Assembly (NCBI RefSeq): GCF_963921235.1
Contig: NC_086108.1
Coordinates: forward strand, 17,236,001-17,300,000
DNA: 64,000 nucleotides
Source of the DNA: Mobula hypostoma
Taxonomy: Eukaryota
Reading direction: 5' to 3'
The translations under genes and the position numbers were made by a program. Below, piece by piece: positions 20,881 to 41,129 of the stretch; positions within the stretch are counted from its first letter, which is position 1, and each line of letters opens with the position of its first letter. Below the pieces are notes generated by a model that was not told the origin of the DNA, did no database searches, and worked only from the letters and a program-made list of their open reading frames with translations.

Positions 20881-21361
20881 ACTACCCCCATCTATATGCC
20901 TGGTCACCTCCTCAAAGAACTCCATCCAGCTTGTTAGACAGGACCTGTCCTTCACAAAGCCATGCTGACTGTCCCTGATCAGACCATGATTCTCTAAATG
21001 CCCATAGATCCTATCTCTAAGAATCTTTTCCAACAGCTTTCCCACCACAGACGTAAGACTCACTGGTCTATAATTACCCAGACTATTCCTACTACCTTTT
21101 TTGAACAAGCAGACAACAATTCGCCTCCCTCCAATCCTCCGGTACCATTCTCATGGACAACGAGGACATGAAGATCCTAGCCAGAGGCTCAGCAATCTCT
21201 TCCCTCGCCTCGTGGAGCAGCCTGGGGAATATTCCGTTAGTCCCCGGGGACTTATCTGTCCTAATAGAAACATAGAAACATAGAAAATAGGTGCAGGAGT
21301 AGGCCATTCGGCCCTTCGAGCCTGCACCGCCATTTATTATGACCATGGCTGATCATCCAAC

Positions 21362-24300
21362 TCAGAACCCAGCCTTCCCTCCATACCCCCTGACCCCTGT
21401 AGCCACAAGGGCCATATCTAACTCCCTCTTAAACATAGCCAATGAACTGGCCTCAACAGTTTGCTGTGGCAGAGAATTCCACAGATTCACCACCCTCTGT
21501 GTGAAGAAGTTTTTCCTAATCTCGGTCCTAAAAGGCTTCCCCTCTATCCTCAAACTGTGACCCCTCGTTCTGGACCTCCCCAACATCGGGAACAATCTTC
21601 CCGCATCTAGCCTGTCCAATCCCTTTAGGATCTTATACGTTTCAATCAGATCCCCCCTCAATCTTCTAAATTCCAACGAGTACAAGCCCAGTTCATCCAG
21701 TCTTTCTTCATATGAAAGACCTGCCATCCCAGGAATCAATCTGGTGAACCTTCTTTGTACTCCCTCTATGGCAAAGATGTCTTTCCTCAGATTAGGGGAC
21801 CAAAACTGCACACAATACTCCAGGTGTGGTCTCACCAAGGCCTTGTACAACTGCAGTAGTACCTCCCTGCTCCTGTACTCGAATCCTCTCGCTATAAATG
21901 CCAGCATACCGTTCGCCTTTTTCACCGCCTGCTGTACCTGCATGCCCACTTTCAATGACTGGTGTATAATGACACCCAGGTCCCGTTGCACCTCCCCTTT
22001 TCCTAATCGGCCACCATTCAGATAATAATCTGTTTTCCTATTTTTGCCACCAAAGTGGATAACTTCACATTTATCCACATTAAATTGCATCTGCCATGAG
22101 TTTGCCCACTCACCCAACCTATCCAAGTCACCCTGCATCCTCTTAGCATCCTCCTCACTGCTAACACTGCCACCCAGCTTCGTGTCATCCGCAAACTTGG
22201 AGATGCTGCATTTAATTCCCTCATCCAAGTCATTAATATATATTGTAAACAACTGGGGTCCCAGCACTGAGCCTTGCGGTACCCCACTAGTCACCACCTG
22301 CCATTCTGAAAAGGTCCCGTTTATTCCCACTCTTTGCTTCCTGTCTGCTAACCAATTCTCCACCCACACCAATACCCTACCCCCAATACCGTGTGCTTTA
22401 AGTTTGCACACTAATCTCCTGTGTGGGACCTTGTCAAAAGCCTTTTGAAAATCCAAATATACCACATCCACTGGTTCTCCCCTATCCACTCTACTAGTTA
22501 CATCCTCAAAAAATTCTATGAGATTCGTCAGACATGATTTTCCTTTCACAAATCCATGCTGACTTTGTCCGATCATTTCACCGCTTTCCAAATGTTCTGT
22601 TATCACATCCTTGATAACTGACTCCAGCAGTTTCCCCACCACTGACGTTAGGCTAACCGGCCTATAATTCCCCGGTTTCTCTCTCCCTCCTTTTTTAAAA
22701 AGTGGGGTTACATTAGCCACCCTCCAATCCTCAGGAACTAGTCCAGAATCTAACGAGTTTTGAAAAATTATCACTAATGTATCCACTATTTCTTGGGCTA
22801 CTTCCTTAAGCACTCTGGGATGCAGACCATCTGGCCCTGGGGATTTATCTGCCTTCAATCCCTTCAATTTACCTAACACCACTTCCCTACTAACATGTAT
22901 TTCACTCAGTTCCTCCATCTCACTGGACCCTCTGTCCCTTACTATTTCTGGAAGATTATTTATGTCCTCCTTAGTGAAGACAGAACCAAAGAAATTATTC
23001 AATTGGTCTGCCATGTCCTTGCTCCCCATAATCAATTCACCTGTTTCTGTCTGCAGGGGACCTACATTTGTCTTTATCAGTCTTTTCCTTTTTACATATC
23101 TATAAAAGCTTTTACAGTCCGTTTTTATGTTCTCTGCCAGTTTTCTCTCATAATCTTTTTTCCCCTTCCTAATTAAGCCCTTTGTCCTCCTCTGCTGAAC
23201 TCTGAATTTCTCCCAGTCCTCAGGTGAGCCACTTTCTCTGGCTAATTTGTATGCTACTTCTTTGGAATTGATACTATCCCTAATTTCTCTTGTCAGCCAC
23301 GGGCCACTATCTTCCTTGATTTATTCTTTTGCCAAACTGGGATGAACAATTGTTGTAGTTCATCCATGCAACCTTTAAATGCTAGCCGTTGCATATCCAC
23401 CGTCAATCCTTTAAGTGTCATTTGCCAGTCTATCTTAGCTAATTCACGACTCATACCTTCAAAGTTACCCCTCTTTAAGTTCAGAACCTTTGTTTCTGAA
23501 TTAACTATGTCACTCTCCATGTTAATGAAGAATTCCACCATATTATGGTCACTCTTACCCAAGGGGCCTCTCACGACAAGATCGCTAATTAACCCTTCCT
23601 CATTGCTCAAAACCCAGTCCAGAATAGCCTGCTCTCTAGTTGGTTCCTCGACATGTTGGTTCAAAAAACCATCCCGCATACATTCCAAAAAATCCTCTTC
23701 CTCAGCACCTTTACCAATTTGGTTCACCCAGTCTACATGTAGATTGAAGTCACCCATTATAACTGCTGTTCCTTTATTGCACACATTTCTAATTTCCTGT
23801 TTAATACCATCTCCGACCTCACTACTACTGTTAGGTGGCCTGTACACAACTCCCACCAGCGTCTTCTGCCCCTTAGTGTTATGCAGCTCTACCCATATCG
23901 ATTCCACATCTTCCCGGCTTATGTCCTTCCTTTCTATTGCGTTAATCTCTTTTTTAACCAGCAACGCCACCCCACCTCCCCTTCCTTCATGTCTATCCCT
24001 CCTGAATATTGAATATCCCTGAACGTTGAGCTCCCATCCCTGGTCACCCTAGAGCCATGTCTCTGTGATCCCAACTATATCATAATCATTAATAACAATC
24101 TGCACTTTCAATTCATCCACCTTATTACGAATGCTCCTTGCATTGACACATAAAGCCTTCAGGCGCTCTTTTACAACTCTCTTTGCCCTTTTTAATGCTT
24201 GCCCTGGATTTGTCGGCCTGCCACTTTTACTTTTCTCCTTTGTACTTTTTGCTTCTACGCTCACTTTACACCCCTCTGTCTCTCTGCACTGATTCCCATC

Positions 24301-24375
24301 CCCCTGTTGTGAACTAACCTCCTCACGCCTAGCCTCTTTAATTTGATTCCCACCCCCCAACCATTCTAGTTTAAA
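21362..24375 (-). pseudogene. CR1-A ORF2 (APE endonuclease plus RT), one nonsense codon and one 1-nt deletion
   Basis: NARS, ITETWL, YRPP, MGDFN and SDH, then [18 protein letters not shown] and FADD. Stop at 24049-24051 is in frame with ORF 23293..23970; frameshift near 23303; then open 23302-21362. Confidence 0.95.
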
Positions 24376-25301
24376 GTCACCTCAGTAGCCCCCGCTAATC
24401 TCCCTGCCAGGATATTGGTGCCCCTAGGATTCAAGTGTAACCCGTCCTTTTTGTACAGGTCACGCCTGCACCAATAGAGGTCCCAATGATCCAAAAACTT
24501 GAATCCCTGCCCCCTGCTCCAATCCCTCAGCCACGCATTTATCCTCCACCTCATCGCATTCCTACTCTCACTGTCGCGTGGCACAGGCAGTAATCCCGAG
24601 ATTACTACCTTTGCGGTCCTTTTTCTCAACTCCCTTCCTAGCTCCCTATATTCTTCTTTCAGGACCTCATCCCTTTTCCTACCTATGTCATTGGTACCTA
24701 TATGTACCACGACCTCTGGCTCCTCACCCTCCCACTTCAGGATATCTTGGACACGATCAGAAATATCCCGGACCCTGGCACCAGGGAGGTAAACTACCAT
24801 CCGGGTCTCTGGACTGCGTCCACAGAATCGCCTATCTGACCCCCTTACTATCGAGTCCCCTATCACAACTGCCCTCCTCTTCCTTGCCCTACCCTTCTGA
24901 GCTACAGGGCCAGACTCTGTGCCGGAGGCAGGGCCACTGTCGCTTCCCCCGGGTAAGCTGTCCCCTCCAACAGTACTCAAACAGGAGTACCTGTTGTTAA
25001 GGGGCACAGCCACCAGGGTACTCCCCATCACCTGCCTTTTCCCCTTCCCCCTCCTAACCGTGACCCACTTGTCTGCCTCCCGTGGCCCCGGCGTGACCAC
25101 CTGCCTTCCACTCCTCTCTATCACCTCCTCGCTCTCCCTGACCAGACGAAGGTCATCGAGCTGCAGCTCCAGTTCCGTAACGCGGTCCCTTAGGAGCTGC
25201 ATCTCGATGCACTTGGCGCAGATGTAGACGTCCGGGAGGCTTGGAGACTCCAGGGCCTCCCACATCCGACACTGAGAACAGCAAACTGCCCTCACAGTCA
25301 T
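24366..25301 (-). CDS. CR1 ORF1 protein (311 aa): Cys zinc finger, coiled coil, SGNH/GDSL esterase
   Basis: From ATG at 25301: MTVRAVCCSQC..CAKC, heptad LRDRVTELELQLDDL, then VIGDSIVRG, LPGA, HIGTNDI, DGLHLN; open to TAG at 24366-24368. Confidence 0.92.
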   Translation of the reverse strand: MTVRAVCCSQCRMWEALESPSLPDVYICAKCIEMQLLRDRVTELELQLDDLRLVRESEEVIERSGRQVVTPGPREADKWVTVRRGKGKRQVMGSTLVAVPLNNRYSCLSTVGGDSLPGGSDSGPASGTESGPVAQKGRARKRRAVVIGDSIVRGSDRRFCGRSPETRMVVYLPGARVRDISDRVQDILKWEGEEPEVVVHIGTNDIGRKRDEVLKEEYRELGRELRKRTAKVVISGLLPVPRDSESRNAMRWRINAWLRDWSRGQGFKFLDHWDLYWCRRDLYKKDGLHLNPRGTNILAGRLAGATEVTLN

Positions 25302-27025
25302 AATGTATTTTAACAACTCCAACACCTCCTCTCCCTTAATCTCAACATGCTCCAGAACATCAATCTCACTCATATTGTCCTCACTGTCATCAAGTTCCCT
25401 CTCTTTGGTGAATACTGAAGAGAAGTATTCATTGAGGACCTCTCTCACTTCCACAGCCTCCAGGCACATCTTCCCATCTTTATCTCTCACTGGTCCTATC
25501 TTCACTTTTGTTCTTCACATAATTGAAGAATGCCTTGGGGCTTTCCTTTACCCTACTCGCCAAGGCCTTCTCATGCCCCCTTCTTGCTCTCCTCAGCCCC
25601 TTCTTAAGCTCCCTTCTTGCTACCCTATATTCCTCAATAGACCCATCTGATCCTTGCTTCCTAAACCTAATGTATGCTGCCTTCTTCCACCTCACTTGTC
25701 ACCCATGGTTCCTTCACCCTACCATTCTTTATCTTCCTCACCGAGACAAATTTATCCCTAACATCCTGCAAGAGATCCCTAAACATTGACCACATGTTCA
25801 TAGTACATTTCCCTGCAAAAACTTCATCCCAATTCACACCCACAAGTTCTAACCTTATAGCCTCATAATTTGCTCTTCCCCAATTAAAAATTTACCTGTC
25901 TTCTCTGATTCTATCCTTTGCCATGATAATGTTAAAGGCCAGGGAGCAGTGGTCACTGTCCCCCAGATGCTCACCCACTGAGAGATCTGTGACCTGACCT
26001 GGTTCGTTATTTAATACTAGATCTAGTATGGCATTCCCCCTAGTCGGCCTGTCAACGTACTGTGACAGGTATCCGTCCCGGATACACTTAACAAACTCTG
26101 CCCCGTCTAAACCATTGAAACGAATCAGATGCCAATCAATATTAGGGAAGTTAAAGTCACCCATGATAACAACCCTGTTATTTTTGCACCTTTCCAAAAT
26201 CTGCCTCCCAATCTGGTCCTCGGTATCTCTGCTGCTACCAGGGGGCCTATAGAATACCCCCAATAGAGTAACTGCTCCCTTCCAGTTCCTGACTTCCACC
26301 CATACTGACTCAAAAGAGGATCCTGCTACATTACCTACCCTTTCTGTAGCTATAATAGTATCCCTGACCAGTAATGCCACCCTCCTCCCCTTTTTCCCCC
26401 TTCTCTATCCCTTTCAATGCACTGAAATCCAGGAATATTGGGAATCCATTCTTGCCCTGGTGCCAACCAAGTCTCTGTAATGGTCACTACATCATAATTC
26501 CATGTATGTATCCAAGCTCTCAGTTCATCATCTTTGTTCCTGATACTTCTTGCACTTTAGCCCTTCTACCTTACTACCTTTACACCCTTTATTCTGTTTC
26601 TCTTTCATCAAAGCCGCTTTATATTTTAGATCTGGCTTTACTCCATGCACTGTACTTGCACTTCCTGCATGACCTTTATCCTCCTCCACCTCACTATCTG
26701 CTCTAACACTCTTGTTTCCCTCCCCCTGCAAATCTAATTTAAACCCCCCAGAGCAGCACTAGCAAACATTCTCATAAGGTTGTTAGTCCCCCTCCAGTTC
26801 AGGTGCAACCGTCCCGTTGGAACGGGTCCCACCCTCCCTGGAACAAGGCCCAATTGTCCAGAAACATGAAGCCCTCCGTCCTCTACCAACTCCTTAGCCA
26901 CGTATTTAGCTGCATTATCTTCCTATTTCTAGCCTCACTAACACGTGGCACGGGGAGCAATCCTGAGATTGCAACCCTGGAGGTCCTGTCCTTCAACTTT
27001 GCACCTAACTCCCTAAATTCTCTTT

Positions 27026-38033: not shown

Positions 38034-41000
38034 TAAGACCATAAGACCATAAGACAAAGGAGCAGAAGTAGGCCATTCGGCCCATTGAGTCTGCTCCGCC
38101 ATTTTATCATGAGCTGATCCATTTTATCCTATTTAGTCCCACTGCTCTGCCTTCTCACCATAACCTTTGATGCCTTGGCTACTTAGATACCTATCAATCT
38201 CTGCCTTAAATACGCCCAGTGACTTGGCCTCCACTGCTGCCCATGGCAACAAATTCCATAGATTCACCACCCTCTGACTAAAAAAATTTCTTCGCATTTC
38301 TGTTCTGAAAGGGCACCCTTCAATCCTGAAGTCATGCCCTCTCGTACTAGACTCCCCCATCATGGGAAACAACTTTGCCACATCCACTCTGTCCATGCCT
38401 TTTAACATTCGAAATGTTTCTATGAGGTCGCCCCTCATTCTTCTAAACTCCAAGGAATACAGTCCAAGAGTGGACAAACGTTCCTCATATGTTAACCCTC
38501 TCATTCCCGGAATCATTCTCGTGAATCTTCTCTATACCCTCTCCAACGTCAGCACATCCTTTCTTAAATAAGGAGACCAAAACTGCCCACAGTACTCCAA
38601 GTGAGGTCTCACCAGCGCCTTATAGAGCCTCAACGTCACATCCCTGCTCCTATACTCTATTCCTCTAGAAATGAATGCCAACATTGCATTCGCCTTCTTC
38701 ACTACTGACTCAACCTGGAGGTTAACTTTAAGGGAATCCTGTACGAGGACTCCCAAGTCCCGTTGCATCTCAGAACTTTGAATTCTTTCCCCATTTTAAT
38801 AATAGTCTGCCTGTTTATTTTTTCTGCCAACGTGCATAACCATACACTTTCCAACATTGTACTTCATTTGCCACTTCTCTGCCCATTCTTCCAATCTATC
38901 CAAGTCTCTCTGCAGACTCTCCGTTTCCTCAGCACTACCGGCCCCTCCACCTATCTTCGTATCGTCAGCAAACTTAGCCACAAAGCCATCTATTCCATAA
39001 TCCAGATCGTTGATGTACAATGTAAAAAGAAGCGGCCCCAACACTGATACCTGTGGAACACCACTGGTAACCGGCAGCCAACCAGAATGGGATCCCTTTA
39101 TTCCCACTCTCTGTTTCCTGCCAATCAGCCAACGCTCTATCCACGTATGTAACTTTCCCGTAATTCCATGGGCTCTTATCTTGTTAAGTAGCCTCATGTG
39201 TGGCACCTTGTCAAACGCCTTCTGAAAATCCAAATATGCAACATCCACTGCATCTCCCTTGTCTAGCCTACTGGTAATTTCCTCAAAAAATTGTAATAGG
39301 TTTGTCAGGCAGGATTTTCCTTTAAGGAATCCATGCTAAGTTCTGCCTATGTTGTCATATGCCTCCAGGTACTCTGTAACCTCATCCTTGACAATCGACT
39401 CCAACAACTTCCCAACCACCGACGTCAAGCTAACAGGTCTATAATTTCCTTTTTGCTTCCTTGCCCCCTTCTTAAATAGCGGAGTGACATTTGCAATCTT
39501 CCAGTCTTCCGGAACCATGCCAGAATCTATCGACTTTTGAAAGATCATTGCTAATGCCTCTGCAATCTCCACAGCTACTTCCTTCAGAACATGAGGGTGC
39601 ATTCCATCTGGTCCAGGAGATTTATCGACCTTCAGCCTATTCAGCTTCCTGAGTACTTTCTCTGTCGTAATTGTGACTGCGCACACTTCTCTTCCCTGCC
39701 ACCCTTGAGTGTCCGGTATACTGCTGATGTCTTCCTCGGTTAGGACTGATGCAAAATACTTGTTCAGTTCCTCTGCCATCTCCTCATCTCCCATTACAAT
39801 TTCTCCAGTATCATTTTCTATTGGTCCTATATCTACTCTCACCTGTCTTTTACTCTTTATATACTTGAAAAAGCTTTTAGTATCCTCTTTGATATTATTT
39901 GCTAGTTTCCTTTCATAGTTAATCTTTTCTCTCTTAATGACCTTCTTGGTTTCCTTTTGTAAGGTTTTAAAAACTTCCCAATCCTCTGTCTTCCCACTAA
40001 TTTTTGCTTCCTTGTATGCCCTCTCCTTTGCTTTAACTTTGGCTTTGACTTCTCTTGTCAACCATGGTTGCATCCTTTTTCCACTCGAAAATTTCTTCTT
40101 TTTTGGAATATACCTGTCTTGCACATTCCTCAATTTTCGCATAAACTCCAGCCACTGCTGCTCTGCCGTCTTTTCCGCCAGTGTCTCTTTCCAGTCAACT
40201 TTGGCCAGTTCCTCTCTCATGCCACTGTAATTTCCTTTACTCCACTGAAACACCGACACATCAGATTTCGGCTTCTCTTTTTCTAATTTTACAGTGAACT
40301 CAATCATGTTATGATCAGTGCCTCCTAAGGGTTCCTTCACCTCAATCTCTCCAATCACCTCCGGTTCATTACACAATACCCAATCCAGTACAGCCGATCC
40401 CCTAGTGGGCTCAACAACAAGCTGTTCTAAAAAGCCATCTTGAAGACATTCTACAAATTCTCTCTCTTGAGATCCAGTGCCGACCTGATTTTTCCAATCT
40501 ACTCGCATGTTAAAATCCCCCACAATTATCATAACACTGCCCTTCTGACAAACCTTTTCTATTTCCAGTTGTAATTTGTAGTCCACATCCCTGCAGCTGT
40601 TTGGAGGCCTATAAATAACTGCCATCAGGGTCTTTTTACCCCTGCTATTCCTTAGCTCAACCCATAAAGATTCTGCACCTTCCGATCCTATATCACCTCT
40701 TTCTAACGATTTAATATAATTTCTTAGCAATAAAGCCACGCCTCCCCCTCTGCCTACCTTCCTATCCTTCCGATACACCGTGTATCCTTGGACGTTCAGC
40801 TCCCAGAGACATGCATCCTTTAGCCAGGTCTCAGTGATGGCCACAATATCATACCTGCCAATCTGTAGCTGTACAACAAGATCATCCACCTTATTCCTTA
40901 TGCTGCCTGCATTTAAGTACAACACCTTAAGACCAGTATTTGATACTTTTTGCTTTGATTTCACTGCAACTTTATTGCACTTCAACTCATCCCAATGGCT

Positions 41001-41129
41001 ACACATTTGCCCCATCATCTGCCTGTCTTTCCTGACATCTTTACTGCTCACTATCTTAGATTTATTTCTGTTATCCCCTTCCTCTGCTCTATCATTCCGG
41101 TTCCCATCCTCCTGCCAAATTAGTTTAAA
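38034..41129 (-). mobile_element. CR1 element C, complete ORF2 span plus 3' UTR, truncated at the ORF1 stop
   Basis: Tail (taagacca)n at 38034-38055; homology ends at ...tagtttaaa 41129. Confidence 0.97.
38133..41129 (-). pseudogene. CR1-C ORF2 (APE plus RT), 999 codons in one frame with three premature stops
   Basis: ORFs 39336..41165, 38796..39248, 38532..38768 and 38133..38516 share a frame; stops at 39336, 38796 and 38532; APE and RT motifs present. Confidence 0.95.

Follow-up and report, generated by a model that had tools for sequence, protein, structure and literature searches.

A comparative case for programmed −1 ribosomal frameshifting at the ORF1/ORF2 junction of vertebrate CR1 retrotransposons

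From sequence comparison, a strong case can be made that vertebrate CR1 retrotransposons use programmed −1 ribosomal frameshifting at the junction of their two open reading frames, and we think it quite probable that this is how an esterase-APE-RT fusion would be made. If so, this would account for how the dominant retrotransposon of vertebrates produces its reverse transcriptase. A gag-pol-like fusion would set the ratio of ORF1p to ORF2p and tether a lipid-binding esterase to the endonuclease-RT, and annotating ORF2 from its first Met would be wrong for whole families. The text consulted of PMC13343379 describes CR1 as the main retrotransposon in most vertebrates, and the translation of LINE ORF2 has two worked cases, both of them reinitiation, in the parts of PMC2881922 and PMC3708506 drawn on here.

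In the proposed mechanism, a minority of ribosomes likely slip one base back at the heptamer T_TTA_AAC, which ends ORF1 directly before its stop codon, and read on into ORF2. Following the general model of −1 frameshifting, the tRNA-Leu and tRNA-Asn would slip in tandem from UUA AAC to UUU AAA, and the slipped ribosomes would continue through a linker of 39 to 90 codons to APE and RT. The remaining ribosomes would stop at once and release free ORF1p, giving a gag-pol-like ratio with ORF1p in excess. The pause might come from the adjacent stop codon together with a downstream G-rich box (G5-N2-G3), which could conceivably bind a protein or fold into a two-tier G-quadruplex in place of a pseudoknot. 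If only the P-site tRNA slipped at the stop codon, conservation of the U_UUA half of the heptamer would not be required.

CR1 copies in the window and their families in the ray genome

The window, the whole 64,000-nucleotide stretch of DNA analysed here, contains three CR1 copies with the candidate junction (CR1-A, CR1-B, and CR1-C; Table 1), and all three heptamers lie at the minus-strand coordinates and in the phase given in the preliminary description. CR1-A has the makeup of a vertebrate CR1 LINE, with an SGNH esterase ORF1 and an ORF2 containing APE and RT, and its 3′ end, like that of the metagenomic locus L166, consists of short tandem repeats with no poly(A). Esterase ORF1, APE-RT ORF2, and short-repeat 3′ end are likewise those of the canonical vertebrate CR1 in the consulted text of PMC13343379. 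Homologues of ORF1 were found in sharks, coelacanth, frogs, turtles, squamates, and a bird, the closest named one to CR1-A being from a devil ray (96%).

Table 1. Junction features and associated reading frames of the CR1 copies in the window.
Feature	Position	Strand	Description
CR1-A ORF1	24369..25301	-	311 codons from ATG; SGNH esterase C-terminal (PF13472, E 8.6e-17)
CR1-A slippery heptamer T_TTA_AAC	24369..24375	-	Final 7 nt of ORF1
CR1-A ORF1 stop TAG	24366..24368	-	Adjoins heptamer
CR1-A G box, candidate stimulator	24349..24358	-	G5-N2-G3 position, +11..+20 from heptamer end
CR1-A −1 frame from heptamer	24052..24375	-	AUG-less linker, APE NARS and ITETW, TGA end
CR1-A remaining ORF2 (APE then RT)	21362..24048	-	PF14529, PF03372, PF00078
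CR1-A 3′ terminal short tandem repeat	21264..21286	-	
CR1-B heptamer T_TTA_AAT + TAG	26734..26743	-	Heptamer itself 26743-26737
CR1-B G box	26717..26726	-	
CR1-C heptamer T_TTA_AAC + TAA	41120..41129	-	Heptamer itself 41129-41123
CR1-C G box	41103..41112	-	One G unlike family majority
CR1-C ORF2 in −1 frame, APE domain	39336..41129	-	597 codons open from heptamer

ORF1 of CR1-A ends in ...EVTLN*, which places the heptamer in X_XXY_YYZ phase. ORF2 of this copy had been described as having no in-frame AUG ahead of the APE motifs NARS and ITETW, and this was borne out: the −1 frame runs open for 108 codons that include both motifs (the NARS Asn codon is at 24144 on the minus strand) and contain no Met. 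Its identification as ORF2 holds through NARS and ITETW and fails directly after ITETWL, where this copy has a TGA; the remaining ORF2 is split between 23293-24048 and 21362-23320. The reading FKLEW across the junction is correct as a conceptual −1 frame, but a tandem slip would keep Leu-Asn and enter the −1 frame at the third codon. For CR1-B, the site and its phase stand as described, in a decayed copy that has AAT where the family majority has AAC, whose −1 frame stops after 71 codons, and in which NARS is found in another frame. CR1-C retains the heptamer and −1 frame attributed to it but no ORF1, being 5′-truncated exactly at the heptamer; its family relatives do show ORF1.

CR1-A begins exactly at its ORF1 ATG (25301), with the 5′ UTR missing, and at this position its start has a few bases in common with the target. 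The copy (25303-21264) appears to be inserted in ORF2 of another CR1, probably CR1-B (26743-20689, minus strand), because ORF2-like sequence halts just before the CR1-A ATG and resumes past its 3′ repeat. Given this insertion, a 382-codon open frame at 24366-25514 is best read as an accidental in-frame joining of part of an ORF2 to CR1-A ORF1.

TTTAAAYTAR occurs 3 times in the window against 0.83 expected, a count reached in 4 of 100 shuffles. The count alone is therefore marginal, and the weight rests on position, since all 3 matches sit at CR1 junctions. Because the window copies are damaged, testing had to use families. Pooling of ray-genome loci gave 187 junction candidates out of 200 once duplicates were removed, with the motif intact in 58/61 copies of family A, 17/19 of B, 31/37 of C, 23/38 of D, and 5/7 of E; family B was found with a DNA query spanning the junction and family C with one beginning at the heptamer, a sampling bias in both counts. 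A check free of this bias, in which 60 evenly spaced 10-kb stretches were searched with queries lacking the motif, yielded 8 junction candidates, comprising 5 with TTTAAAC and a stop, 2 with decayed forms, and 1 with the junction deleted.

T_TTA_AAC_TAG is present in all 30 of the closest copies in family A, the window copy among them. The −1 frame is open to the end of the locus (502 codons) in 21 of these 30, and in 20 of the 21 the first Met is codon 207. The family includes two subgroups that differ by 27 nt in the length of the AUG-less linker, with 231 nt (31 copies) or 258 nt (16 copies) between heptamer and APE Asn codon. It is very young and high-copy: at least 27 places, drawn from 84,623 first-look candidates, are 100% identical across the last 104 ORF1 residues.

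Codon choice, reading phase, and start codons

The heptamer was compared at the codon level in 17 lineages (9 from the ray genome and 8 amniote-like, the latter so named for their likeness to bird and reptile proteins), each represented by one natural copy, with a median ungapped ORF1-tail identity of 0.38. The terminal Leu is encoded by TTA in 16 of the 17, compared with 10% of Leu codons in ORF1 tails, and the seventeenth carries a TGA mutation. The terminal Asn is AAC in every lineage (background 33%), and the first heptamer base is T in every lineage (background 25%), even though the codons supplying it encode six amino acids (Thr, Ala, Gly, Asp, Cys, and Ser). Conserved residues nearby vary in their codons, with Asp encoded by GAC in 7 and GAT in 8 and the first Leu of the DGLHL motif by 4 codons. 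An invariant T under six amino acids, together with the bias toward TTA and AAC, argues for constraint on the RNA and not on the protein. Binomial p-values would overstate the independence of these lineages, since they share ancestry.

This count leaves out ten single copies that carry local indels or damage; 5 of them have TTTAAAC near the projected ORF1 end, and 5 do not (L074, L079, L106, L139, and L168). L165, which has a one-base offset, was restored for the analyses of 18 lineages. The stop codon after the heptamer varies among TAG, TAA, and TGA, and an added T or A inside the heptamer occurs in 1 of 162 copies. The expectation that CR1 lineages would keep the heptamer in preference to synonymous Leu-Asn codons was thus upheld. 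The mutant C_UUC_AAC suggested earlier as a control changes Leu to Phe, and a synonymous Leu codon would be cleaner.

A metagenome scan recovered 41 loci, most of which end near the ORF1 end; 20 reach the projected end and 15 extend past it. T_TTA_AAC followed by TAG, TAA, or TGA was found in the amniote-like loci L162, L164, L165, L166, L169, L172, L173, L178, and L189, and TTTAAAC also in L163, L184, L179, and L190, while it was not seen in L168 and L176 of the same scan. The −1 frames from the heptamer extend for 953 codons in L166 and 994 codons in L165. In supplementary table 2 of PMC13343379, a motif search of the first 400 characters of each consensus, which shows presence and not frequency, placed the motif at the apparent ORF1/ORF2 junction in the CR1 consensuses of alligator, crocodile, bowfin, bullfrog, chimaera, coelacanth, stingray, sawfish, catshark, and dogfish; 4 of the 20 TAG/TAA matches lay off the junction (two in 5′ regions, one in a Crack, and one in an L2 element).

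In all 12 lineages that allowed measurement (six others did not), the spacing between heptamer and APE Asn is divisible by 3, across nine linker lengths of 117 to 270 nt, so that, as had been proposed for the window copies, no lineage measured uses a phase other than −1 for ORF2. Besides the two family A distances, the modal values are 201 nt in B (14/14), 216 nt in C (16/20), and 204 nt in E (3/4), and the single copies F, J, L162, L164, L165, L166, and L169 also have multiples of 3. In the old family D the majority sequence keeps the phase and single copies scatter (3/6). The linkers contain 0 to 1 stops in the −1 frame versus 3 to 10 in the other frames.

A conserved AUG before the APE domain was sought and none was found. 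No in-frame ATG precedes TETW in 43 of 44 open copies of family A and 8 of 13 of family B, and the linkers of both contain only out-of-frame AUGs. The PF03372 match in family A ORF2 covers residues 90-277 and the first Met is codon 207, so a protein started there would lack the N-terminal half of that APE match. Among the majority sequences, Met occurs before TETW at no position in A or B, at 39 in C, at 16 and 60 in D, and at 4 and 20 in E. The preliminary description had cautioned that the CR1-C linker has AUGs, which is correct and extends further than stated, to family E and several amniote-like copies: ray families C, D, and E have an in-frame AUG ahead of the APE domain, as do one J copy and all 5 amniote-like copies that could be measured.

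These codons bear on the main alternative, termination-reinitiation, in which ribosomes would restart at an AUG or near-cognate codon near the ORF1 stop and produce free ORF2p. This is the accepted mode for SART1 (UAAUG; PMC2881922) and L1 (PMC3708506) in the parts of those papers considered, elements that resemble CR1 in having a bicistronic LINE RNA and an ORF2 dependent on ORF1 translation, and PMC3708506 argues in the same part for keeping ORF1 functions separate from ORF2p. Some CR1 lineages are SART1-like in having an AUG at or near the stop: a TAATG stop-start overlap in the −1 frame, with the heptamer intact, occurs in L263 and its relatives (family E) and in L178, and an in-frame ATG lies 2 nt past the stop in L162, L164, L165, and L166. 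Families A and B offer a near-cognate in-frame TTG at codon 5-6. SART1 and L1, however, yield free ORF2p, whereas CR1 has no conserved start and a conserved slippery heptamer. The stop-adjacent AUG is absent in A, B, C, D, L169, and L173; the first in-frame AUG falls at codon 4, 5, 16, 23, or 39 or nowhere; the AUG that comes first downstream of the stop in family A is in another frame; and the heptamer is retained even in lineages that have an AUG. Reinitiation predicts neither the invariant T under six amino acids nor the TTA and AAC codons, and we regard it as unlikely. Where in-frame AUGs do precede APE (C, D, E, J, and the five amniote-like copies), it is viable as a second or sole route, and family E and L178 possibly have two routes to ORF2 in one element.

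A search of longer proteins for natural single-ORF fusions scored 8000 candidates and turned up 3 gene-model chimeras, all unrelated, a result that weighs little in either direction. The in-frame ORF1-ORF2 reads P0036, P0051, and P0058, found among matches of near ORF1 length, were set aside as apparent gene models or individual mutated copies.

The downstream G box and comparison with known systems

The linkers had been thought unalignable beyond the junction; their first 20 nt do align and share the G5-N2-G3 box at +11 to +20. G occupies +11 to +15 in 17 to 18 of 18 lineages and +18 to +20 in 16 to 18 of 18, and positions +4 to +10 are variable. The G run is made up of the last base of one codon (Lys, Gln, Leu, Arg, or Ser), a GGG codon, and the opening base of another (Glu, Asp, Gly, Val, or Cys), and because it spans codons of variable amino acids it is best read as a nucleotide motif. 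The GGG codon is present in 17 of 18 lineages, and 40% of linker Gly codons are GGG. In family D the exact G5-N2-G3 spacing is found in 1 of 23 copies, the box there being G6-T-G3, one base earlier.

Classical −1 frameshift stimulators are stem-loops or pseudoknots 5 to 9 nt downstream. Pseudoknot-free folding of the 18 lineages found no conserved stem-loop 3′ of the heptamer (z −1.1 to +1.7), and a search for long-range pairing of the G box found no common partner in 7 long elements, the best partners lying at unrelated places; a classical stimulator is therefore missing. In 6 of the 18 lineages the fold of lowest energy has a two-tier G-quadruplex over the box, and G4Hunter scores overlap the G-rich ORF1 background. 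According to the part of the 2016 review PMC5009743 considered, no natural G-quadruplex frameshift stimulator was known, which makes the G box a candidate new type of stimulator. A bird-type hairpin with a CCAGGC/GCCTGG-like stem lies at about +25 to +50 after the stop in L164, L169, and L173, too distant for a classical stimulator, and does not occur in the ray families.

A bolder formulation is that jawed-vertebrate esterase CR1s, and probably elements beyond them with swapped heptamers, would make RT only as a −1 fusion, by a structure-free shift driven by the G box (G-quadruplex- or protein-activated) and kept since sharks and birds diverged. We offer it tentatively, the balance of probability lying somewhat against it.

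The coronavirus 1a/1b frameshift site is also U_UUA_AAC, and retroviral gag-pol likewise uses a −1 shift. The CR1 junction resembles these in heptamer class, phase, an upstream structural ORF, and a polymerase ORF in the −1 frame; it differs in that no conserved 3′ hairpin was found, the zero-frame stop is immediate, and the element is a cellular LINE. In the arterivirus PRRSV, a short linear motif, CCCANCUCC, 11 nt 3′ of the shift site acts in protein-stimulated frameshifting (PMC5009743, part considered). Its likeness to the CR1 box, which begins at +11, is one of position only and serves as an analogy, the PRRSV motif being C-rich and protein-bound whereas the CR1 box is G-rich and known from sequence. 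Among APE-type non-LTR elements, TRE5-A and TRE3-A of Dictyostelium depend on −1 frameshifting to express ORF2, according to the consulted text of PMC5911963. They are two-ORF LINE-like elements as CR1 is, but belong to another clade, and no esterase ORF1, heptamer, or stimulator is described for them in that text; CR1 has one invariant heptamer and stop across vertebrates.

A frameshifting proposal for CR1 was not found in the full-text literature searched, a coverage outside which the founding CR1 papers fall, and UUUAAAC was not found among the matches listed for one of the queries. The review PMC5009743 makes no mention of CR1 in its first 300,000 characters. In the 2026 survey PMC13343379, the main text has 0 matches each for frameshift, start codon, translation, and overlap, and the supplement text has 0 for frameshift.

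It is also conceivable, though highly improbable, that Leu-Asn is needed by the esterase and that TTTAAAC, the stop, and the G box form an RNA or DNA signal for packaging, RNA processing, splicing, or polymerase slippage, ORF2 then being expressed in some other way. The terminal Asn is indeed invariant in an alignment of 34 proteins, and the G box has no structure tying it to translation; a requirement of the protein, however, cannot dictate which synonymous codon is used or which base ends a variable one, and a non-translational signal leaves the fixed −1 phase unexplained. In distant relatives, Gly or Lys also takes the place of the Leu, which is what other heptamers would give. Since the TAA and TGA lineages have no AG, a splice acceptor is unlikely, and slippage in the template RNA should, assuming cis preference as in L1, pass the extra base to new copies, yet the added base described above is confined to a single copy. 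In contigs of four putative-RNA runs, which cannot show expression, neither a heptamer indel nor a sense-strand splice-like joint was found among the matches listed. The part considered of the Suh 2015 supplement (PMC4316615) gave 3′-end matches only.

Protein ends of related and distant esterase ORF1s

At the protein level, 83 of 120 ORF1 homologues end in [LIV]N. A residue whose codons cannot end in T (K, E, Q, M, or W) precedes this pair in 2 of the 83, compared with 35/83 and 37/83 at the next two positions. The frameshift reading can be followed into a distant set of 134 new 50%-cluster representatives, 89 of which end no more than 45 residues from the DGLHL motif. C-terminal tripeptides fitting X_XXY_YYZ were found in 52 of these 89, versus 2-10 of 89 at offsets 1 to 7, and comprise 41 LN, 8 GN, and 3 KN ends; LN was favoured among the distant matches because the search profile included the terminal residues. 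The remaining 37 of 89 do not fit a terminal heptamer. K, E, Q, M, or W precedes LN in 0 of 41, and Gln, whose codons can end in G and not in T, precedes GN in 6 of 8. The ends Q-G-N and S/A-K-N match, as proteins, what G_GGA_AAC and A_AAA_AAC require. Heptamer swapping may therefore have taken place among the distant esterase ORF1s, as judged from their protein sequences. A quick tree of the esterase core (144 columns) puts the proteins ending in GN and KN in a group separate from the vertebrate LN ones; it does not fix the number of heptamer switches. DNA of the GN- and KN-ending elements was not found in viral contigs or in the supplement text of PMC13343379.

A search of prokaryote genomes gave only 2 weak matches, and a search of the PDB no match to the APE region. 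P0021, listed under Pseudomonas aeruginosa, is a CR1 ORF1 of shark type, and L202 is a weak match in a 506-base contig of a Providencia assembly; both are likely contamination with host DNA.

Nine distant proteins (P0179, P0193, P0199, P0200, P0239, P0244, P0245, P0246, and P0255) have [RTS]-K-N at the usual end position and run on for up to about 12 residues, as A_AAA_AAC with a later stop would at the protein level. Another five (P0111, P0118, P0190, P0191, and P0219) end in G-F-R, F-F-R, or G-F-C, ends that could reflect U-rich heptamers one codon ahead of the stop.
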